Shown here: positions 1,596-61,597 of the stretch, one piece after another | Position numbering within the stretch: position 1 is the first letter of the stretch | Layout of the letters: each line of letters starts with the position of its first letter | Source of the DNA: Gammaproteobacteria bacterium | GTDB lineage: Bacteria > Pseudomonadota > Gammaproteobacteria > SZUA-229 | Assembly (NCBI GenBank): GCA_024636785.1 | Contig: JAGXGK010000025.1 | Location: forward strand, 83,476 to 147,475 | DNA: 64,000 bases | Direction of reading: 5' to 3' | Translations under genes and position numbers: made by a program | The notes under the pieces: model-generated | Database searches by the model: none | What the model was told of the DNA's origin: nothing | What the model saw: only the letters and a program-made list of their open reading frames with translations

Positions 1596-2195
1596 ATGTC
1601 GCAAGTAATTGAAACTAAAAAAGAAACATGTACAACCAAAGAGGCCGCCGCGTTTCTGTCGGTGACCACGAGAACCATTCAGCTGTGGGCTGATGCAGAT
1701 ATTTTACCGGCATGGAAAACCCCGGGCGGTCACCGCCGCTTCCAGGTATCGGATATCGAAGCGCTACAGAAAAAGCTGTTGGGTGATGAAATAAATCAGC
1801 CCAGATTGAAATTACTGGTGATAGAAGACGAGCCTGATTTATTAACCCTGTATCGATTCCATGTAGAAGGCTGGACGATTCCTGTTGAATTGCAAACAGC
1901 CAGTGACGGTTACGAAGGGTTGCTAAAAATAGGTGCCTGGCAACCGGATATGATTGTTACGGATTTACAAATGCCGAACATGGATGGTTTTTATCTGCTC
2001 CAGGTGTTGAACCGACAAGCTGAGCTACAGACTACCGAAATTATTGTGGTTTCGGCTTTATCCAAAGAGGATATTAAGGAGAAAGGAGGAGTGCCTGAGG
2101 GAATAGAAGTTTACCAGAAGCCGATACCTTTTGATCTTATTGAGCAACATGCAAAAGTGCGTCTGGATAATTTAAACAGTCGGCGCCCGGAGTAA
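1596..2195 (+). CDS. response regulator with N-terminal excisionase/MerR-type HTH and C-terminal receiver domain
   Basis: The N-terminus TTKEAAAFLSVTTRTIQLWAD..PGGHRRF is an excisionase-family HTH. The REC domain reads LKLLVIEDEPD...IVTDLQMPNMDG. Confidence 0.8.
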   Translation: MSQVIETKKETCTTKEAAAFLSVTTRTIQLWADADILPAWKTPGGHRRFQVSDIEALQKKLLGDEINQPRLKLLVIEDEPDLLTLYRFHVEGWTIPVELQTASDGYEGLLKIGAWQPDMIVTDLQMPNMDGFYLLQVLNRQAELQTTEIIVVSALSKEDIKEKGGVPEGIEVYQKPIPFDLIEQHAKVRLDNLNSRRPE

Positions 2196-2354
2196 ATCTA
2201 CGATCTTAGTCACATGGTTCGAGATGAACCAAAAATACGTAAGTATCTTAATAATCTAATGTGATTGCCGCATTATTATCATTAAGATTTATATTCTGAT
2301 GCACATGATGTCGCTGAAGTTACACGCTCAAGTCTTAAATAGGGGTTTTATTGC

Positions 2355-5300
2355 GTGAGTGTGAGTAAAAAAATCTGCCAGATAAAATCGCTTAATGGCG
2401 AATGGAAAACCTGCCTGTTCTATAGTACAAGCCTGCTGGTTATCGCATTGCTGGTCGTGGGTGCTGTTTTCACCGAGCAGTTTTTTGAAAAGCGCATACG
2501 CGGCGAAAAGCGTGCAATGTTAACCGCCCTGATCGGGCAGGCAGAAAGGTCGCTGATCGAATGGCACAGCCATCACGAGCAGATGGTCACTTCCTGGGCA
2601 CAGACATCGCTGCTTCGTGAGATGACAGCATCATTGCTTAAATATCCTGTAGACGAAGTGTTGCTCAAAACTGCCCATGAGCAAAAAGCTCTGCGTGAGT
2701 TACTGTCACCGCTGGTTGCTTCGGATAAGCACCACCTTGATTACTTTATTATTTCGACAGAAAAAATAAATCTTGCCTCTCATTCGGGTGGTGATCTGGG
2801 GGCGGTCAGCAATATTCCCGAGCACATTCTGGATAAAGCCATAGCCGGTCATACTGTACACAGTCTGCCGCAAAAGGCGAATATCCCTCTAGCCGATTCG
2901 AATAACAATCCGGTATCTGATCAGCCCACCATGTTTACCGTAGCACCTGTTAAGAACTTAAGTGGTGAAGTTATTGCGCTACTCGCCTTAAAAATGAGCC
3001 CGGTAAAAGATCTTGCTGCAATTTTACAGCAGGGTCAGCTGGGTGAATTTGATGAGATTTATATCTTCAATCAGGCCGGGCAGTTACTGAGTGAAAGCAG
3101 ATTTACTGAAACGCTTTGGGGAATGGGGCTGCTGGAATTCGGCCAGTCCAGCATTTTCAACCTGCAACTGCGTGATCCCGGCGGCAATATGATGACAGGT
3201 TACCACCCTGAAATGCTACGCTCGCAACAGCCCCTGACGTTGATGGCGGAGCGCGCGGTAAATGGGGAAGATGGACTGAATCTGGACGGCTATAACGATT
3301 ACAGAGGTGTGCCGGTGATTGGTATATGGCGCTGGAATGATGCTCTGGACATAGGCATTGCGGCAGAAATGGATGCTCAGGAAGCTTATGCAACACACCT
3401 GCTGTTGCGCAAGGTGATGGCTTTCGGCGTCACCTTTAGTATTTTAATTGTCGTAGTGTTCAATCTGATTTTTACATTTGCCCGTAACAGTGTGACCAAA
3501 AGCAAAATGAGTCTGGTGAATGCCCAGCGCATGGCGCATCTGGGAAGCTGGGATTGGGACATTGTTCGTAATCGACTGGTGTGGTCGGCTGAAACTTACT
3601 GCATTTTCAGGCAGCCGCCGGAGCAGTTTGAAGTCAGTTATGATACTTTTTTAGAGTGTGTTCATCCGGATGATCGTAACAGGGTCAAGGCTGAATTAGA
3701 AAACACGCTGAATAATGGTCAACCTTATGAAACCGAGATGAGGATCATTCGTCCCGATGGTGCCGAGCGGATTGTGGTTGCCAAAGCAGAGCTTGAGCGC
3801 AATGCCAGAGGCGAACCGACTCGTATGTACGGCAGTGTGCTTGATATTACCGAGAGGAAAAAAGCGGAACAGGAGCTTAGATTATTCAAAACCACTTCAG
3901 ATATGATCGAGGACGGCGTGTTCATGCTTAGCCCCGGTTCGCTGAAATTCTTTTATGTTAATCAGGCTGCCGTGCGGCAACTGGGCTTCACCCGGGCAGA
4001 GTTATTCGATATGAGGTTGACAGATATTACTCCTGATTTTGATGAGGAAGCATTCCGTGCATTTATAACCCCGATGCTGCTGCAGGGAGCCGCGCACACC
4101 CTGCTGTTTCAGACCGAATTTCAGCGAAAAGACCGCACACTGGCACCGGTTGATGTTGTTTTGCAGTATCTGGCGCCAAAAGACGAAAGCCCGCGTTTTG
4201 TCGCTATCGTCAGAGATTTTTCCGCACGTCAGCGCATCGAAGATCAGCTCAAAGCCGAAAAAGAAAAGGCGGAGCAGGCCACACGATCCAAATCTGAATT
4301 TCTGGCCAATATGAGCCACGAAATCAGAACCCCCATGAACGGTGTACTGGGAATGCTGGAACTGCTGAGCATTACCCCGCTCACTGAAAAACAAACCGGT
4401 TATCTGCACACCGCCGAGAGTTCAGCAAAATCACTGCTCACTGTAATCAACGATATTCTGGATTTCTCCAAAATTGAAGCCGGGAAAATGCAGTTGGAGA
4501 ATGCAGTCTTTAACCTGCATGAAGTCGTTGAGGATAGCGTTAGATCAATGTCAAAGCAGGCTTATGCTAAACAGCTCGATCTCAATTGCTATATTTCAGC
4601 AGATGTGCCGCTGCAGGTTAGCGGAGACCCGGTAAGGCTTCGCCAGATTATTACCAATCTGATCAATAATGCGATTAAATTTACTGTGACCGGAGAAGTC
4701 GACTTGCGGCTCTGTAAAATATCAGAGAGTGATAATCTGGTAATCTTCTGTTTTGAAGTCGAGGATACTGGAATAGGAATTAAAAAAGACCAGCTTGAAA
4801 AATTGTTCGATGCCTTTACTCAGGCAGACGGAACAACCACGCGCAAATATGGTGGTTCAGGACTCGGTCTTTCAATATGTAAGCAACTGGTTGACATGAT
4901 GCGCGGTGAGATAAGTGTGAACAGTGAATTGGGGGAAGGTTCTATTTTCTCGTTTTACGTTATTTTATCAAAAGTAGAACAAAGAGTGGAACGTAGAGAA
5001 AAAGGCTTGCTGCAAGATATCAGGGTGCTGGTGGTTGATCACAATGATACAAACCGTAAGATTCTGGGCAGGTATCTGTCCAGCTGGAAGGTTCAAAGTG
5101 CAGATGTTGGTGACAGTCATGCCGTGTTGCCGATGTTGCGCGATGCCATAAGCAATGATAAACCCTATCAGATAATGTTGCTTGATTTACAGATGCCGAA
5201 GGTTGACGGCTTAAAGTTGGCGCAGAAGATAAAGGCGGATCCGGACCTGCAATACATTCATATAATAACGTTGGGTTCTTTAACCGAAGAGACGGGCATT

Positions 5301-19687: not shown

Positions 19688-19722
19688 TTTCACCGCAGAG
19701 AGCGCAAAGAACGCAGAGAAAA
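19688..19722 (+). repeat. solo CACCGCAGAG-type repeat unit, followed by a REP-like hairpin
   Basis: TTCACCGCAGAGAGCGCAAAGAACGCAGAGAAAAG is the same unit as at 56811, 58694, 59937, 60418 and 60689. The hairpin TTGTAGGTT..AACCTACAA follows. Confidence 0.7.
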
Positions 19723-19929
19723 GCTTTTGTAGGTTCGAATGAATTCAAACCTACAAATAATTTAAATTTTTTCTTTTTGCAAACCTGTTGTGGTAACTCA
19801 TGACTTTGGTTGATGGGTGCGAGAACCCGCTACCACTGAAATATCAAAATATAAAAAACTGGATTCCGGCCAAAGTCACGCCGGAATGACGGATTATTGA
19901 TGAATATATTGTGATGACAAAAGGAAAAA

Positions 19930-53956: not shown

Positions 53957-54511
53957 GTGAAAATCAGAGTTAAAAGCACCTGGAATGATAAAACGCGCGA
54001 GCGCAGCCCCGATGAGGTTGGCAGTGCGCTGGGTTTTAATCTGTGGCGCATTGCCGGTGCGAACGTGCTGCATCTGGAAAACGAAGGCTTCCAGACCGAT
54101 ACCTATAACCAGCGCCTGGATGTAATTGCCGAGTTGCTGGGCTTTTTTGTGCATGTGGTCGATCGTATGGCCGCTGAGAAGGAATATTCGGAACAGGAGC
54201 GCAAGGACCTGATCACCGCGCTGGCGTTGAATTTGGCCAAAACCATGCACGATAACCGCTCCGACGTGAATGAGGAGAAGCAGGATTTCAAGGCGCAGTT
54301 TATTCAGGTGCTGAACGAGCGCATGGCTGAATATGCCGATTTCGCCTACGACGAGGCTGAACCCGGCTTTCAGATGAAAAGGCGGGTAGGTGAGCACGTC
54401 ACCGCCGTGATGGGCGACAGAGATAAAAAGTGGGTGACCGATCAGATTATGGAAATTGAAATCCCCGATGCGCTCAAAACCTTTAAAAAGGTGGCGAGGA
54501 ATTTGATTTAG
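53957..54511 (+). CDS. hypothetical protein (184 aa)
   Basis: GTG start with a GAGAGGA RBS 6 nt upstream. Confidence 0.5.
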   Translation: MKIRVKSTWNDKTRERSPDEVGSALGFNLWRIAGANVLHLENEGFQTDTYNQRLDVIAELLGFFVHVVDRMAAEKEYSEQERKDLITALALNLAKTMHDNRSDVNEEKQDFKAQFIQVLNERMAEYADFAYDEAEPGFQMKRRVGEHVTAVMGDRDKKWVTDQIMEIEIPDALKTFKKVARNLI

Positions 54512-55681: not shown

Positions 55682-56722
55682 ATGCGTCCAGCTCATCTAT
55701 TAACCGTTATTGAAAAAGAATTTTCCAGCGCCGACACCGGCCACCACACGCCAGTGATGCTGTGGGGTGCGCCCGGGGTGGGTAAATCGCAGATGGTGGC
55801 GCAGATTGCGGAGAACCATAATGTGCCCCTGATTGATATCCGGCTGTCACAGATGGAGCCCAGCGATTTGCGCGGCATTCCCTTCCGGGTGGGCGATCTC
55901 GTGGAATGGGCGGTGCCGGCCATGTTGCCCAACGCGCAACGTCACGGTGAGCGCGGCATTCTGTTTCTCGACGAAATCACCTCGGCACCCCCGAGCGTCT
56001 CCGCCGCCGCCTATCAGCTGATTCTCGACCGCAAACTGGGCGAATATGAAGTGCCCGAAGGCTGGGCGATTATCGCGGCGGGCAATCGTCAGGGCGATCG
56101 CGGCGTGACCTACAGCATGCCCGCACCGCTGGCAAACCGGTTCTCGCATTACGAAGTTGAAGTCAATCTGGATGACTGGGTCGCCTGGGCTTACCTTCAT
56201 GGTATCGACGAGCGCATCATTGCCTTTTTGCGCTTCCGTCAGGATCTGTTATTCGAGTTCGATGCCGCGCAAAATCCGGTCGCTTTCCCCTCGCCACGTT
56301 CCTGGGAGTTTGCCCACCGCGCGCTGCAAAAATTCGACAACTCCAATAATTTATTACTGGGCGCATTGCAGGCCTGTGTCGGCAAAGCTGCCGGCATCGA
56401 AGTCAAAGCCTTTGTCGACAGCCTCGATCAAATGCCCGACCTGGATGCTATCGTCAGAGGCGAAGACCTCGCTGCACCGAAAGAAATTGATCTGCAATAC
56501 GCCGTCGCCACAGCACTGGTTGGACGCGCCATCCGCGCCAAAGAAACCGCCGATGCCATGACCGTACACGGCAATATATTGAACTACGCCAGCCGCTTCC
56601 CGCAACGCGAAATGGGCGTGATGATGGTGTCAGACATGCACCGTGCAGTGGGGCAGGAACTATTTGCCGTCCCGGAGTTCGCGGCCTGGGCGGATAAGAT
56701 TGCGGATATAATGTTGTACTGA
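55682..56722 (+). CDS. MoxR/AAA_5-type AAA+ ATPase
   Basis: Walker A GAPGVGKS, Walker B ILFLDEI, and AAGNRQGDRGV..PLANRF. Confidence 0.88.
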   Translation: MRPAHLLTVIEKEFSSADTGHHTPVMLWGAPGVGKSQMVAQIAENHNVPLIDIRLSQMEPSDLRGIPFRVGDLVEWAVPAMLPNAQRHGERGILFLDEITSAPPSVSAAAYQLILDRKLGEYEVPEGWAIIAAGNRQGDRGVTYSMPAPLANRFSHYEVEVNLDDWVAWAYLHGIDERIIAFLRFRQDLLFEFDAAQNPVAFPSPRSWEFAHRALQKFDNSNNLLLGALQACVGKAAGIEVKAFVDSLDQMPDLDAIVRGEDLAAPKEIDLQYAVATALVGRAIRAKETADAMTVHGNILNYASRFPQREMGVMMVSDMHRAVGQELFAVPEFAAWADKIADIMLY

Positions 56723-56730
56723 TAAGAAAT

Positions 56731-56848
56731 TTCACCGCAGAGGTGATAAGTAGTTTAAGGTCGAAAGCTTTTCACCGCAGAGGCGATAAATAGTTAAGGT
56801 CAAAAGCTTTTTACCGCAGAGGTCGCAGAGAACGCAGAGGAAAAAAAG
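56731..56848 (+). repeat. tandem array of about 40-bp units built on TTCACCGCAGAGG, ending in a full CACCGCAGAG-type unit
   Basis: The units start at 56731, 56771 and 56811. The last one reads TTACCGCAGAGGTCGCAGAGAACGCAGAGGAAAAA. A degenerate unit lies at 56903-56925. Confidence 0.75.
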
Positions 56849-56930
56849 TTTTTAATAGATGCAACCACTATAGAGAATATAAATAGTTTGAATCAAAATC
56901 TTTTATCGCAGAGATGCGGAGGGAAATAAT

Positions 56931-57305
56931 ATGGATGTTAATGAGATTTCTAAGAATGTAATTGGTGCTGCAATTGATGTGCACAGGGTTTTGGGGCCGG
57001 GGTTATTGGAGTCGGCGTATGAAGCCTGTTTGTGTTATGAGTTAGAATTGCGAAATATTAGATTTGCTCGGCAAGCTGATGTTCCAGTGAAATATAAAGG
57101 TGTGAATCTGGAATGCGGTTATCGAATAGATTTGCTGGTTGAGGATAAAATCGTAGAATTGAAATCGGTTGAAAAACTTATGCCAATACACGATGCGCAA
57201 TTACTTTCATATTTGAAATTGACCGGCTGTACAGTCGGCTTACTCATAAATTTTAATGTTTTGGTACTGAAACAGGGTATAAGTAGAAAAGTACTAAACC
57301 ACTAA
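56931..57305 (+). CDS. GxxExxY-family protein (PD-(D/E)xK nuclease superfamily)
   Basis: 124 aa. [24 protein letters not shown] contains the GxxExxY motif, followed by [14 protein letters not shown]. Confidence 0.85.
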
Positions 57306-57377
57306 ACCACTAAACCACGCAAATTGATTTCTTACACGACAATCTGAAAAATGTACTTAACCCACTCATTGATTTTG

Positions 57378-57412
57378 TTTTTCTCCGCGTTCTCTGCGAC
57401 CTCTGCGGTGAA
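57378..57412 (-). repeat. CACCGCAGAG-type unit in inverted orientation (right flank of the GxxExxY cassette)
   Basis: TTTTCTCCGCGTTCTCTGCGACCTCTGCGGTGAA is the reverse complement of the unit at 56811-56848. Confidence 0.75.
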
Positions 57413-57430
57413 CGAACTTAGCTTTTAAAT

Positions 57431-58681
57431 ATGAATAATTACCCTGACGTCGAAATAAAACTCGCTACCGCCAGAACGCGTTTGATTCTGGATAAGCCCT
57501 TTCTGGGCGCGCTGGTGTTGCGTCTGCCGATGGTGCCTGCCGATTCGTCCTGGTGTGAAACTACATTCAGTGACGGCAAAACATTTTTTTACAATAACGA
57601 TTACATTGATGCACTCGATGCGGAGCAAACTCAGTTTGCTTTGTCACACGAAGCCTTGCATTGTGCCTTGTCGCATTTTCATCGTAAGGGCCATCGCGTG
57701 AAGCACCGCTGGGAGTTGGCGTGTGATTATGCGGTTAACCCCATGCTGATCAATGATGGTCTGAAACCCACGCCGGATGCCATGCATCTGCGCGAATATG
57801 AAGGCATGACCGCTGAGGAAATTTACCCCTGTCTGGAAGATAACGACAACGGTGGTGAGCGTGATCTTGAGCAGAACCGCGATGACAGTTCTGAAGATGG
57901 TGACAATGAAACCCCGGAAAATGATGATGGCGGTGGTGACAACGAACGCAAGAAAAACGACAAGCAGGACGGCAAGGGCAATAAAAATGATTCATCAGCG
58001 GAAGGCGGGCAAACCGGCTCCAATCCGCCGCCGGAAATGTCACCGCAGGAGCTGGACGATTTAAGCGTGCAGTGGCAGCAACGCATGGCGGGAGCGGCGC
58101 AGCAGGCGCTACAGTCCGGCAAGCTGGAAGGGGATATGGCGCGTCTGGTTGATCATCTGCTGCAACCTAAATTGCCCTGGCGTATGCTGCTGGCGCGTTA
58201 CATGTCGGCCACCGCCAGAGACGATTACAGTTATGCGCGGCCGTCGAGTCGTCGCGGTGACCCGGCGGTCTATCCCAGCCTGCGCAGCAGCGAAACCAAT
58301 ATCCTGGTTGCCATCGACACCAGTGGTTCGATTTCAGCCGAAGAGATACAGGAATTTATTTCAGAAGTTAATGCCATCAAAAGTCAGGTGCGCGCCAGCA
58401 TCACCCTGCTCACCTGTGATTCCGATTTGAACTATGGCTGCCCGTGGAGATTTGAACCCTGGGATGAATTTAAATTCGATGTAGAAATGCGCGGCGGTGG
58501 CGGCACCAATTTCAAGCCGGTCTTTGCCTGGGCGGAAGCGCAGGACAGAGCACCCGATATGCTGATTTATTTCACCGACGCCGACGGCGTGTTCCCCGAT
58601 GTAGAACCGGCTTTCCCTGTCACCTGGCTGGTCAAAGGCAAGGTTAAAGTACCATTCGGACAGCGGATACAGTTGAACTAA
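57431..58681 (+). CDS. putative metallopeptidase-VWA protein (DUF2201-like partner of the AAA+ ATPase)
   Basis: The N-terminal domain has HEALH (HExxH). An acidic low-complexity linker follows, then a C-terminal VWA domain with MIDAS VAIDTSGS. Confidence 0.85.
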   Translation: MNNYPDVEIKLATARTRLILDKPFLGALVLRLPMVPADSSWCETTFSDGKTFFYNNDYIDALDAEQTQFALSHEALHCALSHFHRKGHRVKHRWELACDYAVNPMLINDGLKPTPDAMHLREYEGMTAEEIYPCLEDNDNGGERDLEQNRDDSSEDGDNETPENDDGGGDNERKKNDKQDGKGNKNDSSAEGGQTGSNPPPEMSPQELDDLSVQWQQRMAGAAQQALQSGKLEGDMARLVDHLLQPKLPWRMLLARYMSATARDDYSYARPSSRRGDPAVYPSLRSSETNILVAIDTSGSISAEEIQEFISEVNAIKSQVRASITLLTCDSDLNYGCPWRFEPWDEFKFDVEMRGGGGTNFKPVFAWAEAQDRAPDMLIYFTDADGVFPDVEPAFPVTWLVKGKVKVPFGQRIQLN

Positions 58682-58693
58682 AAACTTAAAACT

Positions 58694-58792
58694 TTCACCG
58701 CAGAGAGCGCAGAGAAGATCCAAGGTAAAAATTATGTATGAATATAAAACAAAAGAAGTTTTTCTCTGCGACCTCTGCGCCTCTGCGGTGAA
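58694..58792. repeat. inverted pair of CACCGCAGAG-type units without cargo
   Basis: Forward TTCACCGCAGAGAGCGCAGAGAAG (58694-58717) and reverse TTCTCTGCGACCTCTGCGCCTCTGCGGTGAA (58762-58792). Confidence 0.75.
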
Positions 58793-58802
58793 CGAGGTTT
58801 AA

Positions 58803-59921
58803 ATGGAGCTCTCAGCCGAAGACAATCTACGCCTCAATGTTCTGCTTGCGCAAAAGTTGCAGGCGGTGCGTATTGATGAATCGAAAATGATTGTGTATGC
58901 GCTCACCGACAAAGGCGAGGCGAAGGTGGTGCTGAATCCGAACTGCAAGGATGAAAAATATCTGAAAGAGATCAAGGCACTGTTCTCCACGCATGTCATG
59001 GGTTCACCCGGTGGTTATCCGGTGTTTTTGAAACGCTGGACGCGGATGGGGCAGGCTCGGGACGAGAGTTTGCAGCAACTGCTGTTGCTGGGTGAAGAGG
59101 AGGCGGTAGTGGCAGCTGTTTATGCGCAGGGTTTGACCGATGAGCTGGCGGCGCGCGCCTGGTGGATTATGCCGACAGCGGATAATGCACGGCGCATGCT
59201 GGAGAAGCAGGCCGTGGTGCAGGGTAGAACCGGGCCGGTGCTGGCTGATTTTTTAATCGAATTCCTGCCCTTTGAAGAAGACCCGTTTATTATGATCGAG
59301 TCGGTGCGTCTGATCCTGCAGCCGGGTTTGATCAGCGAAGAAGAAAAACAGAAGTTGTGGGCGAAGGCAAAAACCAAACGCAATCTTTACGTCGGTTTCA
59401 TGCACGCACTGCCGGATGACCTTCCTGCCGATGTGGCCGCGAATACAGCTTACGATGCAGTTGCCGATCGACTGCAAACCCAGATTGATAATCACAATCC
59501 CTACGCCTTGATGCTGCGCCGGATTCTGAGTGACCGCGGCCAGGCTTTTGTGCAGACCGCTGAAGTCGCCCTGAAAAAACCCGGTGATCAGCAGGTGGTG
59601 GAGTCCCTGTTTAACGCCATCGCCATCTACTTTCATACAATACGACCCGAAGCTTTTACTCCGTATGATATTGCAGCGATATGCAGCGAAACCGGCTGTC
59701 TCTGTGAAACACTCGATGCTGAAGCGCTGCAAGCCGTGCTGGATGCGGTTCCCGAGATGAAAGACAAAATTCAGGCGATGCTGATACTGTCATGCCTGAG
59801 CGTATGCCTGCTCAACCCGGTTTTCTCACAGACCGACGCCATCGGCACCATGATGCGCAAGAAAATTCAACATATCACTGACCCGATTGTGGAACAGTTG
59901 CGTGTGTTGAGAAGTGAGTAA
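58803..59921 (+). CDS. hypothetical soluble 372-aa protein (possible DsrS-like, unverified)
   Basis: GAGG RBS. No TM segment and no motif recognised. See findings for the DsrS hypothesis. Confidence 0.55.
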   Translation: MELSAEDNLRLNVLLAQKLQAVRIDESKMIVYALTDKGEAKVVLNPNCKDEKYLKEIKALFSTHVMGSPGGYPVFLKRWTRMGQARDESLQQLLLLGEEEAVVAAVYAQGLTDELAARAWWIMPTADNARRMLEKQAVVQGRTGPVLADFLIEFLPFEEDPFIMIESVRLILQPGLISEEEKQKLWAKAKTKRNLYVGFMHALPDDLPADVAANTAYDAVADRLQTQIDNHNPYALMLRRILSDRGQAFVQTAEVALKKPGDQQVVESLFNAIAIYFHTIRPEAFTPYDIAAICSETGCLCETLDAEALQAVLDAVPEMKDKIQAMLILSCLSVCLLNPVFSQTDAIGTMMRKKIQHITDPIVEQLRVLRSE

Positions 59922-59936
59922 AACTTTTTAAAAGCG

Positions 59937-60040
59937 TTCACCGCAGAGGCGCAGAGGGCGCAGAGGGCGCAGAGAAAAACTTTTTTTCTTTAACCAAATT
60001 TTTTTGACCTTCTCTGCGCTCTCTGCGCCTCTGCGGTGAA
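59937..60040. repeat. inverted pair of CACCGCAGAG-type units without cargo
   Basis: Forward TTCACCGCAGAGGCGCAGAGGGCGCAGAGGGCGCAGAGAAAAAC and reverse CCTTCTCTGCGCTCTCTGCGCCTCTGCGGTGAA. The pair fills a convergent intergenic gap. Confidence 0.75.
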
Positions 60041-60045
60041 AGCAG

Positions 60046-60399
60046 TTATCTTTGTTTTTTTAACATTTCCTTATATGCTGCTTCATCGAAACCAGCCAAT
60101 ATAGTTTCACCGGCTTCCAGCACGGGGCGTTTTATGATGCTGGGGTTTTCCAGCATCACCTTAATCGCTGAGGCTTTGTCGATGTTGTTTTTGATGCTGT
60201 CATCCAGCTTGCGCCAGGTGGTGCCGCGTCGGTTTAGCAGAATGTCCCAACCGAGTTTTTTGACCCACTGATGGAGTTCTTTTTCCGGTACGCCGGATTT
60301 TTTGTAGTCGTGAAATTCATAATCGACGCCATTGGCTTCAAGCCACTTACGGGCTTTTTTCATGGTGTCGCAGTTGGGGATACCGTATATTTTTAACAT
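60046..60399 (-). CDS. ArsC/Spx-family protein (YffB-like)
   Basis: MLKIYGIPNCDTMKKARKWLE..., 117 aa. Confidence 0.85.
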   Translation of the reverse strand: MLKIYGIPNCDTMKKARKWLEANGVDYEFHDYKKSGVPEKELHQWVKKLGWDILLNRRGTTWRKLDDSIKNNIDKASAIKVMLENPSIIKRPVLEAGETILAGFDEAAYKEMLKKQR

Positions 60400-60417
60400 T
60401 TTAAAACCTTTAGTGCT

Positions 60418-60494
60418 TTCACCGCAGAGGCGCAGAGAACGCAGAGAAAACCTTTATTGTTTTATCTATGCGCCTTCTGTGTCTCCGCAGTGAA
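60418..60494. repeat. inverted pair of CACCGCAGAG-type units (right unit degenerate)
   Basis: TTCACCGCAGAGGCGCAGAGAACGCAGAGAAAA ... TGCGCCTTCTGTGTCTCCGCAGTGAA. Confidence 0.65.
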
Positions 60495-60522
60495 TGATTT
60501 TATCTTTTTATTAATCGATAAA

Positions 60523-60681
60523 CTGTCATCCCGAACGCAGAGAGGAATCTTCAACTGTTTGATGTACGGATGAACTCATGTACAAGATTTACTGCGGGCA
60601 TCCTTGCCCTGCACCCTTCGGGCCAGCTTCGCTGTTCAAATCGCTCCATGCGATTTAGTCTCCCTATGGTCGAAATGACAG
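60523..60681. mobile_element. 159-bp MITE-like element with imperfect CTGTCAT(Y)(Y)CGA termini
   Basis: The left end is CTGTCATCCCGAACGCAGAGAGGAATC. The right end is ...GTCTCCCTATGGTCGAAATGACAG, whose reverse complement is CTGTCATTTCGACCATAGGGAGAC. Confidence 0.5.
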
Positions 60682-60688
60682 GAGTATT

Positions 60689-60754
60689 TTCACCGCAGAG
60701 ACGCGGAGAAAACAAAATATTTATTGTTTTTACCTCTGCGCTCTCTGCGGTGAA
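60689..60754. repeat. inverted pair of CACCGCAGAG-type units
   Basis: TTCACCGCAGAGACGCGGAGAAAAC ... TACCTCTGCGCTCTCTGCGGTGAA. Confidence 0.7.
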
Positions 60755-60772
60755 CAATTTTTTATCTTTTAA

Positions 60773-61597
60773 TCAATCAATATCTCTAAGCAGTTCGTTC
60801 AGGCCGACTTTGCCGCGGGTTTTTGCGTCGACCTGTTTTACGATGACGGCGCAGTACAGGCTGTAGCTGCCGTCTTTGGAGGGCAGGTTACCGGAGACGA
60901 CGACTGAGCCGGCAGGGATGCGGCCATAGGTGACTTCACCGGTCATGCGGTTGAAGATTTTGGTGCTCTGGCCGATGTAGACGCCCATGGAGATGACTGA
61001 GCCTTCTTCGACGATGACGCCTTCGACCACTTCGGAGCGCGCGCCGATGAAGCAGTTGTCTTCGATGATGGTGGGCGCGGCCTGCAAAGGTTCGAGTACG
61101 CCGCCGATGCCGACTCCGCCGGAGAGGTGTACGTTTTTACCGATCTGCGCGCATGAGCCGACGGTGGCCCAGGTGTCGACCATGGTGCCGGTGTCGACGT
61201 AGGCGCCGATGTTGACGTAAGAGGGCATCAGCACCACGCTGGGCGCGATGTAGGAGCCGATGCGAGCGGTGGCCGGGGGCACGACGCGCACGCCGGATTC
61301 ACGAAAATCGCGGATGTTGTGATTAGCGAATTTGGAATCCACTTTGTCGTAGTAGTTGGTGAAGCCGCCCTTGATGAATTCGTTATCGTTGATGCGGAAG
61401 GAAAGCAGCACAGCTTTTTTCAGCCATTCATTCACCACCCAGTCACCGTCTTTCTTTTCGGCAACGCGCGCCTTGCCGGAGTCGAGCAGGGCGATGCATT
61501 CGTTGACCGCGTCGGTGACATGGGTTTCGGCATTGCGCGGGGTGATTTCGGCTCTGCGTTCAAAAGCTTCTTCAATAATGTTTTTCAATTCGTTCAT
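60773..61597 (-). CDS. dapD: 2,3,4,5-tetrahydropyridine-2,6-dicarboxylate N-succinyltransferase
   Basis: 274 aa, hexapeptide-repeat region, DapD-like along its full length. Confidence 0.92.

Follow-up and report, generated by a model that had tools for sequence, protein, structure and literature searches.

We analysed a stretch of 64,000 nucleotides (nt) of DNA from a gammaproteobacterium (contig JAGXGK010000025.1; hereafter the window, to whose positions all coordinates refer unless another locus, numbered with L, is named). It carries a small gene of the GxxExxY (PDDEXK_3) nuclease family between the genes of a MoxR-type AAA+ ATPase and its VWA-domain partner. We observed that this gene and the inverted repeat arms around it form a single unit. 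Empty arm pairs coexist with the gene, match it in arm type and cluster with it, and each of two GxxExxY subfamilies, canonical and B, has arms of its own. We consider it probable that the gene with its arms is one genetic unit of a widespread and so far undescribed kind, and that the gene-less hairpins are its non-autonomous partners.

Inverted arms around the nuclease gene

The ATPase gene (55682-56722, + strand) matched PF07728 AAA_5 (E 9e-11) and the downstream metallopeptidase-VWA gene (57431-58681, + strand) matched DUF2201_N and DUF2201 (VWA-like). By domain matches the host pair is an ATPase gene followed by a VWA-domain partner. The spacer between the ATPase stop at 56722 and the VWA start at 57431 is 708 nt long. 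Its single open reading frame (ORF), at 56931-57305 on the + strand, is the GxxExxY gene of 124 amino acids (aa), recognised by PF13366 and TIGR04256. The parts that the original prediction had described were all found at the positions it gave.

The prediction had also described three tandem units on the left of the gene and their reverse complement on the right, and the repeat search recovered them. In the window an arm consists of a TT(C/T)ACC terminus, three CGCAGAG units with a period of 9, and an innermost A-run. The left arm (56810-56848, + strand) begins with TTTACC and fits the family-wide arm consensus. The right arm (57375-57412, - strand) is the reverse complement of the left one, has GGTGAA at its end and was aligned with the right arms of six relatives. 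The inverted pair 56810-56847 / 57375-57412 extends over 38 nt and is 89% complementary. Two partial arm copies lie further out on the left. Copy 1 (56731-56769, + strand) consists of TTCACCGCAGAGG plus approximately 27 nt and was found through direct-repeat families D1-D3 with a spacing of 40; copy 2 (56771-56808, + strand) was found as a direct repeat and by alignment with relatives. The left tandem units are spaced by 40 and 39 nt, and the outer TTCACCGCAGAGG has a perfect match to the right end too. A degenerate proximal copy (56901-56930, + strand; TTTTATCGCAGAGATGCGGAGGGAAATAAT, the fourth copy of direct-repeat family D3) touches the start codon. It is the positional equivalent of the single left arm of the relatives (aligned: L002, L083, L084, L081, L022 and L165). 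In the whole window we counted 19 occurrences of ACCGCAGAGG at no more than one mismatch, while 3.0 were expected and none of 100 shuffles contained as many. The two-unit pattern CGCAGAGNNCGCAGAG occurred 13 times (0.39 expected).

The original prediction had set as a test whether other GxxExxY genes have such flanks, and the answer was strongly positive. A metagenome scan with the family alignment gave 80 loci from soils, sediments and waters, whose proteins are 58-69% identical to the window protein. For each gene we compared the flanks of 150 nt on either side and scored their best inverted match without gaps. The score was at least 14 in 53 of the 78 loci with enough flanking sequence (z up to 32), and nearly all high-scoring loci had arms of the form TTCACC-[C(G/A)CNGAG-N1-2]x3. 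When the same score was applied to 1189 ORFs of 90-250 aa from all fetched DNA, the high scorers were almost only GxxExxY genes; the few others were genes with complete hairpins on both sides. Anchored position matrices were alike on the two sides (ttTTCACC(G/A)CAGAGAC.C.GAGG). The median distance of the outer arm end was 39 nt from the start codon on the upstream side and 40 nt from the stop codon on the downstream side, and the gene sits exactly between the arms with 5-40 nt to spare.

Arms were also present in finished genomes, namely in Bacteroides finegoldii (radA|GxxExxY|FAD protein), Bernardetia (ade|GxxExxY|manC-like) and Sphingomonas parapaucimobilis NZ_CP155749.1 (L172, 1495-1923; fabD|GxxExxY|fabG), where 25-nt arms of CGCGAAG units are 92% complementary. 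In Gemmatirosa, again a finished genome, the GxxExxY gene lies between two complete hairpins. Since finished genomes of cultured bacteria show the same arms, the bracket is not an assembly artefact of metagenome-assembled genomes (MAGs). The annotated coding sequence of S. parapaucimobilis (142 aa) runs through the right arm and stops 2 nt before fabG. Gene callers often extended ORFs into the arms in this way, which gave N-termini like HKDTKDTK and C-termini like SASPR or NPVNPEKSC. A conserved small hairpin (TTTGCCGGGAGATACCGACAAA-like) was seen beside the arms in metagenomic loci L098, L139 and L143, in the gap between arm and gene and after the gene.

The second subfamily was reached from L066 (Sulfuriflexus, outgroup), where a GxxExxY protein 45% identical to that of the window is again encoded between the ATPase and VWA genes. 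Its arms of 27 nt are 93% complementary and consist of ACAGGAT units. With this protein as the query we obtained a second large subfamily (B; motif GFLEKVYENAL, approximately 42% identity). Its sampled members (L066, L179-L183) were always flanked by (A)ATGG/TAG-ACAGGATT-N-ACAGGATT arms, in four independent contexts: ATPase|x|VWA in two lineages, metG|x|nth, and short-chain dehydrogenase|x|sulfatase on a 4-Mb contig. B-type arms occurred only in loci with a B-type gene, apart from one isolated single match in L023; neither the window nor any of the 160-odd other loci had the pattern. L182 has three gene-less B-type hairpins in the spacers adjoining its B gene. Among divergent members of the family (34-44% identity), inverted flanking repeats of another kind were found in Treponema.

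The window protein matched PF13366 PDDEXK_3 over residues 5-119 (E 2.4e-42, 144.4 bits, cut-off 22) and TIGR04256 GxxExxY (E 3.7e-43, 146.6 bits, cut-off 35). It has the motif G24-L-L-E27-S-A-Y30 and the catalytic residues D67, E76-L-K78 and Q90...Y94. Residues G24, E27, Y30, E76, K78, Q90 and Y94 were invariant in both family alignments (A1 and A2); D67 was invariant in A1 and conserved in at least 90% of A2, which comprises 47 diverse members. The motif order E...D...ExK...QxxxY was kept across the family alignments. Judging by dN/dS, the intact copies are under strong purifying selection (0.05-0.08; 0.064 for the window versus L083), and dS was saturated even for the closest GxxExxY pairs.

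A first AlphaFold model from a shallow alignment (predicted local distance difference test, pLDDT, 72.6) gave meaningless Foldseek matches and was superseded by a model from a mixed-subfamily alignment (pLDDT 95). The best neighbours of the latter in the PDB were Cas4 SSO0001, lambda exonuclease, RecE-type exonucleases and a tRNA-splicing endonuclease (Foldseek). These structural matches (4ic1, 6m9k, 3sm4, 3h4r) reached a probability of up to 0.94, yet with E of 0.013 or more and TM of no more than 0.5 they were weak. From the model, the protein is predicted to be a compact PD-(D/E)xK nuclease of the Cas4 / lambda-exonuclease type. A sequence search of the PDB returned no family member with a solved structure. 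PADLOC and PHROGs gave no match for the window nuclease, so a known defence or phage function was dropped, and no CRISPR or recombination genes were present near its gene. A superfamily survey of 2012 listed the function of the GxxExxY family as unknown (PMC3424549), and a GxxExxY-domain gene was once labelled cas4 by a CRISPR tool (PMC8934634).

A profile search of 1.84 billion cluster representatives (50% identity) yielded 39,848 family members at E of at most 1e-3. Two-domain GxxExxY fusions of 250-295 aa were common among the top matches (e.g. P0241, P0242, P0248), and one of their two domains was degenerate, without the D/ExK/QxxxY residues. Such fusions with one dead half show the pattern of a homodimeric nuclease that turned into a single-chain pseudo-dimer. 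Two inverted arms would go well with a dimeric enzyme.

The unit in the window is expanded when compared with its relatives. It has the two additional outer partial arm copies, of which copy 1 was not present in the aligned relatives except L083. The distance from the well-preserved left arm to the ATG is 83 nt, and this stretch ends in the degenerate arm at the ancestral position; approximately 65 additional nt precede the right arm. A tandem repeat of 3 x 8 nt covers the stop codon (57288-57318, + strand; AAACCACT register; direct-repeat family D4 and alignment with relatives). Relatives have one copy of the 8-nt unit, and the 16 extra nt (2 x 8) shift the stop forward by three codons, to 124 aa versus 127 aa. 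The protein also has one residue deleted before E76, in addition to its shortened C-terminus. As far as can be read from the sequence, the window copy is one that kept its catalytic residues while its structure was remodelled.

Approximately 80% of neighbour genes were co-directional with GxxExxY, and in 27 of 39 loci both neighbours were. Upstream of the window gene we found no sigma-70-like promoter on the + strand. Because the neighbours are co-directional and no promoter-like site precedes the window gene, expression of GxxExxY probably relies on read-through of the host operon.

Gene-less hairpins and the history of the site

We measured the distance from each left-type arm to the next right-type arm, outer end to outer end, in 1.13 Mb of fetched DNA. 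The distribution was bimodal, with 57 pairs at 60-200 nt (empty) and 61 pairs at 400-600 nt (with a gene). The unit variant beside the gene (CGC or CAC) was the same as elsewhere in the locus in 20 of 22 loci (Spearman 0.74). Since the variant is shared within a locus and not tied to the protein, a common origin of loaded and empty copies within the genome is suggested. Extra arms were 3-4 times denser in those orthologous loci that carry the gene. In L124 four gene-less units flank the GxxExxY gene and three of them are approximately 95% identical, loops included, which shows amplification of the empty unit as such. The same locus (61-305, 350-800, 826-858, 2175-3356) contains a HicB/HicA-like pair with a complete hairpin on one side and a solo right arm on the other. 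We rejected this pair as arm-bracketed cargo, as such flanks make no clean bracket.

The original prediction had stated that the same repeats occur without cargo at five other sites of the window. These we found to be four hairpins without the gene and an arm that is solo or degenerate. The hairpin at 58694-58792, of the same arm type, follows the VWA gene in the spacer before the next ORF and folds as DNA with -23 kcal/mol (z -5.7); L003 and L019 also have hairpins in the equivalent spacer. The hairpin at 59937-60040 has 4 and 3 units and lies between convergent genes (-45.4 kcal/mol, z -10). A degenerate hairpin at 60418-60494 lies upstream of an ArsC-family gene (fold z -4.0), and a hairpin with 2 units per arm is at 60689-60754 (-25.6 kcal/mol, z -9.0). 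In all four the arms face each other across short AT-rich loops, and the single-stranded DNA folds have z from -4 to -10. The solo left-type arm is at 19689-19723 (+ strand), with a possible, very degenerate right partner approximately 70 nt downstream. Arms were present in all 5 spacers at 56.7-60.8 kb and in 1 of 42 spacers elsewhere in the window (Fisher p = 4e-6).

We compared 80 orthologous ATPase loci, all from Gammaproteobacteria and mostly from Thiotrichaceae-like MAGs. Loci with ATPase identity of at least 82% were taken as the host clade and the 57 loci with at most 81% as the outgroup. The statement that ATPase and VWA partner genes are normally adjacent held in the outgroup, where the spacer had a median of 27 nt and did not exceed 60 nt in 37 of 57 loci. 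The comparison of empty sites, which had been proposed together with it, showed that the unit is absent from the ancestral junction. In the host clade the site was found intact and loaded, with a pseudogene, internally deleted, with a hairpin only, or near-empty. Apparent GxxExxY pseudogenes with stop codons or frameshifts were present in L009, L011 and L014 and an internal deletion in L012, while the gene-less hairpins at this site belonged to the repeat family of the window and to other families. In L001, the closest relative, the spacer is 0 nt, the stop TAA touches the ATG, and the four spacers that correspond to arm-bearing ones of the window are compact. L017 has a near-empty junction with one unit of another repeat family left. 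A second site behaves similarly: the place of the window's degenerate empty hairpin before the ArsC-family gene is taken in L006 by a broken GxxExxY copy.

The identities of ATPase and GxxExxY proteins were uncorrelated (Spearman 0.17). Pairs with similar ATPases had dissimilar nucleases (ATPase / GxxExxY identity of 95% / 60% for L014-L019, 95% / 68% for L002-L083 and 93% / 61% for L003-L015), in contrast to L003-L093 (94% / 85%). This lack of correlation indicates allele replacement at a fixed site. The distribution of states over the aligned loci shows that the unit entered the ATPase-VWA spacer in an ancestor of the Thiotrichaceae-like clade of the host. Since then some lineages have retained it, and in others it was swapped for a different allele, inactivated or lost. 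The original prediction of a small mobile cassette that landed inside an operon was therefore right in that gene and flanks are one unit that was ancestrally absent. A recent landing was not supported, as the closest homologues (78-86% identity) in related organisms all share the same site and dS is saturated.

Hairpins of other kinds were seen in these loci. A second tandem-unit family (TCCGCAAATGAACGCAAATGA, period 10), with which no gene was seen to be associated, occurs in ATPase-VWA and other spacers of relatives (L007, 7056-7136; L008, 3016-3098; L018, 6913-7124; L020; L015, 1692-1771; L029, 4617-4706). Hairpins whose arms are tandem heptamers (TAACTAT, TATTCAG, AATGTTG, TAAGTCA) occur in the ATPase-VWA and neighbouring spacers (L004, 1851-1967; L013, 2307-2400; L029, 5878-5938; L042, 2676-2755 and 5802-5872; L063, 7047-7148). 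Two Thiohalophilus MAGs, L029 (5868-6000) and L031 (3101-3325), have flanks that are approximately 94% identical and different hairpin families in the Sel1-ATPase spacer; only the last unit of the L031 type is left in L029. This difference suggests fast turnover of hairpins at fixed spacers.

We also noted several features of the window around these repeats. Approximately 170 nt between two gene-less hairpins (60505-60690) are bounded by inverted CTGTCAT...ATGACAG; this segment is single-copy and without an Rfam match. A perfect 11-bp stem-loop (GTAGGTTCGAATGAATTCAAACCTAC) directly follows the solo arm at 19729-19756, between convergent genes. Two ORFs, 58803-59921 (372 aa) and 53957-54511 (184 aa), had no Pfam, NCBIfam or PADLOC match, and the orthologues of each border the ATPase-VWA pair in roughly half of the 80 orthologous loci. 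They may belong to the functional cluster of this pair.

Proposed mechanism and rival explanations

The reading that we favour, and that we hold to be fairly likely, is a nuclease-plus-cognate-arm element with gene-less partners, long resident at the ATPase-VWA site. These partners would resemble REPINs, the hairpin doublets of repetitive extragenic palindromic (REP) sequences. The element would consist of a PD-(D/E)xK nuclease gene between two inverted arms, each with TTCACC and three C-R-C-N-G-A-G units (period 8-9). The gene-less hairpins would depend on the nuclease, in the role that REPINs have for the genes of REP-associated tyrosine transposases (RAYTs). The protein may act as a dimer, one subunit reading each of the two unit arrays, and may in this form cut DNA at or near the paired arms. 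Copying or replacement would then proceed by recombinational repair from another copy and not by cut-and-paste of the DDE type. Lying between co-directional genes, the element is probably transcribed with the host operon.

Target-site duplications had been proposed as a check of the original prediction and were not found: duplications of 2-8 nt at offsets of 0-5 among 68 arm pairs did not rise above chance level at any offset. Their absence argues against DDE-type transposition, and copying by recombinational repair would account for it. We put forward more tentatively, as a possibility that we would not yet bet on, that these are mobile elements of a nuclease-only class. In such a class a dimeric PD-(D/E)xK enzyme of approximately 125 residues would read the 7-nt units in the inverted arms and cut, and break-induced, recombination-dependent copying would spread both element and hairpins. 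This would be a second, independent solution of the REPIN/RAYT kind, with an arm sequence for each subfamily.

Several observations weigh against the favoured reading. Binding or cleavage of the arms by any member of the family is purely inferred. No near-identical pair of loci or genomes differing by one insertion was found, so no movement event was caught. The 36 gene-less loops of 100-400 nt contained no gene remnant at E of at most 1, and the gene-less hairpins are therefore probably not simply recent deletion derivatives; L012 was the sole internally deleted intermediate seen. The closest homologues (78-96% identity in a collection of 5.8 billion proteins), where they could be placed, were all at the ATPase-VWA site. 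Together with the saturated dS this indicates that the unit is old at the site and no recent arrival, and a single site for all sampled close homologues in the host clade fits a stable gene retained by the host too. GxxExxY genes were found on 8 of 72,556 plasmid records and at 1 locus in viral contigs, and this near absence leaves the spread across phyla without an explanatory vector. The flanking repeats in the Fusobacteria and Prevotella loci were direct and not inverted, and no flanking repeat was visible at the GxxExxY gene of Persicobacter. Finally, protein identity within the canonical subfamily was nearly independent of the unit variant (60.3% vs 59.2%). Since the CGC and CAC variants hardly track protein identity, the recognised motif is probably the degenerate CRCNGAG.

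Some of these observations would be expected if the hairpins were an independent, pre-existing REP-like family and GxxExxY a free-standing homing endonuclease that targets the hairpin loop. Empty hairpins would then be targets, and the gene would be copied in by repair through the homology of the arms, approximately 35 bp long. The exact fit of the gene between the arms, the loops without gene remnants, the absence of target-site duplications, the gene copy of L006 where the window has an empty hairpin, and the gene-free tandem-unit hairpins of other families in the same spacers all suit this explanation. The states of the site (intact, broken, lost, divergent allele) would follow the cycle of invasion, degeneration, loss and reinvasion of homing-endonuclease genes. 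We nevertheless regard it as unlikely. It leaves without account the spread of the hairpins themselves, their clustering around the gene and the match of their unit variant to the arms of the resident gene; arms of 35 bp offer marginal homology for recombination, and no recent gain of the gene into an otherwise identical hairpin was found. We give still less weight, and consider it rather improbable, that GxxExxY is a domesticated, vertically inherited host gene which maintains or exploits the hairpins in DNA repair, replication or transcript handling, with neither partner selfish now. RAYTs are thought to be domesticated host genes. For GxxExxY one could point to the same position in many related organisms, the strong purifying selection with saturated dS, the near absence from plasmids and phages, and the persistence of hairpins at orthologous spacers across the clade. 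Frequent inactivation and loss (5 copies are broken, and the spacers of L001 and L017 are apparently empty) speak against domestication, as do alleles incongruent with the host gene and insertions inside unrelated operons in other phyla. Moreover, the closest relative, L001, is without the gene and nearly all arms over 13 kb.

The arms could instead act at the RNA level, as a stem in the operon transcript (an RNase III site, or similar to an intervening sequence of rRNA) that excises or regulates the GxxExxY message, with the gene-less hairpins as terminators or stabilisers of mRNA. The co-directional position inside operons, the missing promoter and the thermodynamic strength of the hairpins agree with such a role, which we consider very unlikely. 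G.U-type mismatches between partner arms were not in excess on the sense strand (101 sense vs 94 antisense, p = 0.67), and partner arms were only 81% alike (73% for non-partner arms) and often out of register. From this balance and this likeness we conclude that selection for an RNA stem is unlikely and that the arms look like DNA motifs; a mere stem would also not need a unit sequence conserved across phyla. A scan of 56600-60900 against Rfam (E of at most 10) returned only hairpins resembling miRNA precursors, with at most 34.6 bits where gathering scores are at least 70, and so no family match. Intrinsic terminators were rejected, as no T-run follows the stems, which are followed by GGTGAA and mixed sequence. 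The terminator scan reported neither the arm pair nor the four hairpins; its sole match on these repeats was a 5-bp mini-stem in an outer partial arm copy (56732-56746, - strand). Integron attC sites were rejected as well: in integron cassette arrays they are directly oriented, whereas the arms here are inverted. That REP-like repeats fill all spacers of the region and the nuclease gene merely happens to lie between two of them is, in our judgement, hardly credible. All five spacers at 56.7-60.8 kb do contain arms, and the ArsC-family gene likewise has hairpins on both sides. Each flank of the nuclease gene, though, has one arm and not a complete hairpin, and the two arms face each other. The bracket recurs in unrelated genomes around the majority of the family members sampled, and hardly ever around other ORFs. 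This recurrence and the second subfamily with its own arm type already contradict coincidence.

If the nuclease-plus-arm reading is right, a large family without assigned function (PF13366 / TIGR04256) gains a cognate DNA motif, which makes its function testable at once. Both the protein and the site it is presumed to bind are in hand, and the CRCNGAG and ACAGGATT subfamilies offer a natural specificity swap. The element would explain the tandem-unit hairpin repeats of sulfur-oxidising Gammaproteobacteria and of many soil and sediment bacteria, as well as frequent small insertions in housekeeping operons, such as fabD|fabG in Sphingomonas; elements of this kind would occur throughout bacterial phyla, in protein clusters that number tens of thousands. 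A second class of enzyme would also join the short list of proteins linked with REP-like interspersed repeats. Annotation would profit where ORF calls run into arms, and a sequence-reading nuclease of 125 residues may be of interest as a tool. In the openly searchable literature we found no paper that links GxxExxY, PDDEXK_3 or PF13366 to repeats. Searches combining PDDEXK, inverted repeats, miniature inverted-repeat transposable elements (MITEs), REPIN and RAYT returned nothing relevant, and the arm sequences as text gave only unrelated primer matches.

Comparison with known systems

The original prediction had compared the loaded and empty forms with insertion sequences (IS) and MITEs. The likeness lies in the terminal inverted repeats around a protein gene (38-nt arms, 89% complementary) and in short copies of the two ends alone, with bimodal distances between facing ends. 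The comparison stands insofar as gene-less copies exist, share the unit variant and cluster. It is not supported in that the 68 arm pairs lack target-site duplications. As to an origin of the short copies by internal deletion, L012 does carry an internal deletion of the gene, but no internal remnant was found in the gene-less copies (36 loops). Unlike in IS, there is no transposase (DDE, DEDD, HUH, serine or tyrosine recombinase), the 124-aa PD-(D/E)xK protein being the sole ORF between the arms, and the GxxExxY gene appears to stay at a fixed site in low copy number.

In two other respects the protein and the repeats can be set beside known ones. The GxxExxY protein shares the motif order E...D...ExK...QxxxY with the closest structural matches of its model, the nuclease domains of Cas4, lambda exonuclease and RecE; it is, however, half their size, and the fold matches are weak. 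Cas4 has an Fe-S cluster held by four cysteines, and no four-cysteine cluster of this type was evident in the GxxExxY alignments. As for the repeats, intergenic direct repeats of the TAACTGA heptamer have been described from Beggiatoaceae, cyanobacteria and Bacteroidetes, with one inverted case and no associated protein (PMC4679880); many of them lie within operons and shortly before a start codon. The arrays studied here are similar in having 7-nt tandem units in intergenic spacers of related sulfur bacteria, but they form inverted pairs and have a cognate nuclease gene. The heptamer hairpins of the relatives (TAACTAT, TATTCAG, AATGTTG) recall the TAACTGA repeats, but they too are arranged as inverted pairs.

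Free-standing homing endonucleases include the seg and mob genes of phage T4, and I-Ssp6803I is a homing enzyme of the PD-(D/E)xK type. As with such genes, a small nuclease gene lies between conserved genes without disrupting either, and a single site shows polymorphism of presence and absence, degenerate copies, loss, alleles incongruent with the host and no target duplication. Homing-endonuclease genes, however, have no inverted terminal arms or dispersed gene-less partners, and the GxxExxY family is chromosomal in cellular genomes and not one of phages or introns.

In REPIN/RAYT systems the enzyme gene is flanked by inverted copies of a dispersed hairpin-doublet repeat (see PMC8266576 and PMC8049555). 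The arrangement here is alike: one small enzyme gene goes with inverted copies of a short repeat that is genome-specific and dispersed intergenically as hairpin doublets. Long residence at one locus, purifying selection and the absence of target-site duplication are shared as well. As to the RAYT trait of vertical inheritance in single copy, GxxExxY is syntenic across the clade, but its alleles are incongruent with the ATPase. The enzyme is different: a 124-aa PD-(D/E)xK nuclease, with Pfam and NCBIfam matches to PDDEXK_3 / GxxExxY only, takes the place of an HUH/Y1 transposase of the IS200/IS605 superfamily. The arms are three tandem 7-nt units with a fixed terminus, while a REP is a single imperfect palindrome with a head of the GTAG type. 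The gene here is also often broken, lost or replaced by divergent alleles, and the elements lie inside operons.

In summary, the unit is a member neither of the REPIN/RAYT systems nor of the free-standing homing-endonuclease genes. It is no IS/MITE pair either, since a transposase, HUH or other, and target duplication, by which such systems are defined, were looked for and not found. Its long residence, selection, decay or loss, and allele replacement fit a system of the REPIN/RAYT or homing-endonuclease kind better than IS/MITE. By analogy, what happens at the site is similar to the life cycle of free-standing homing-endonuclease genes, and the closest counterpart of the whole would be REPIN/RAYT, with an enzyme of another class.

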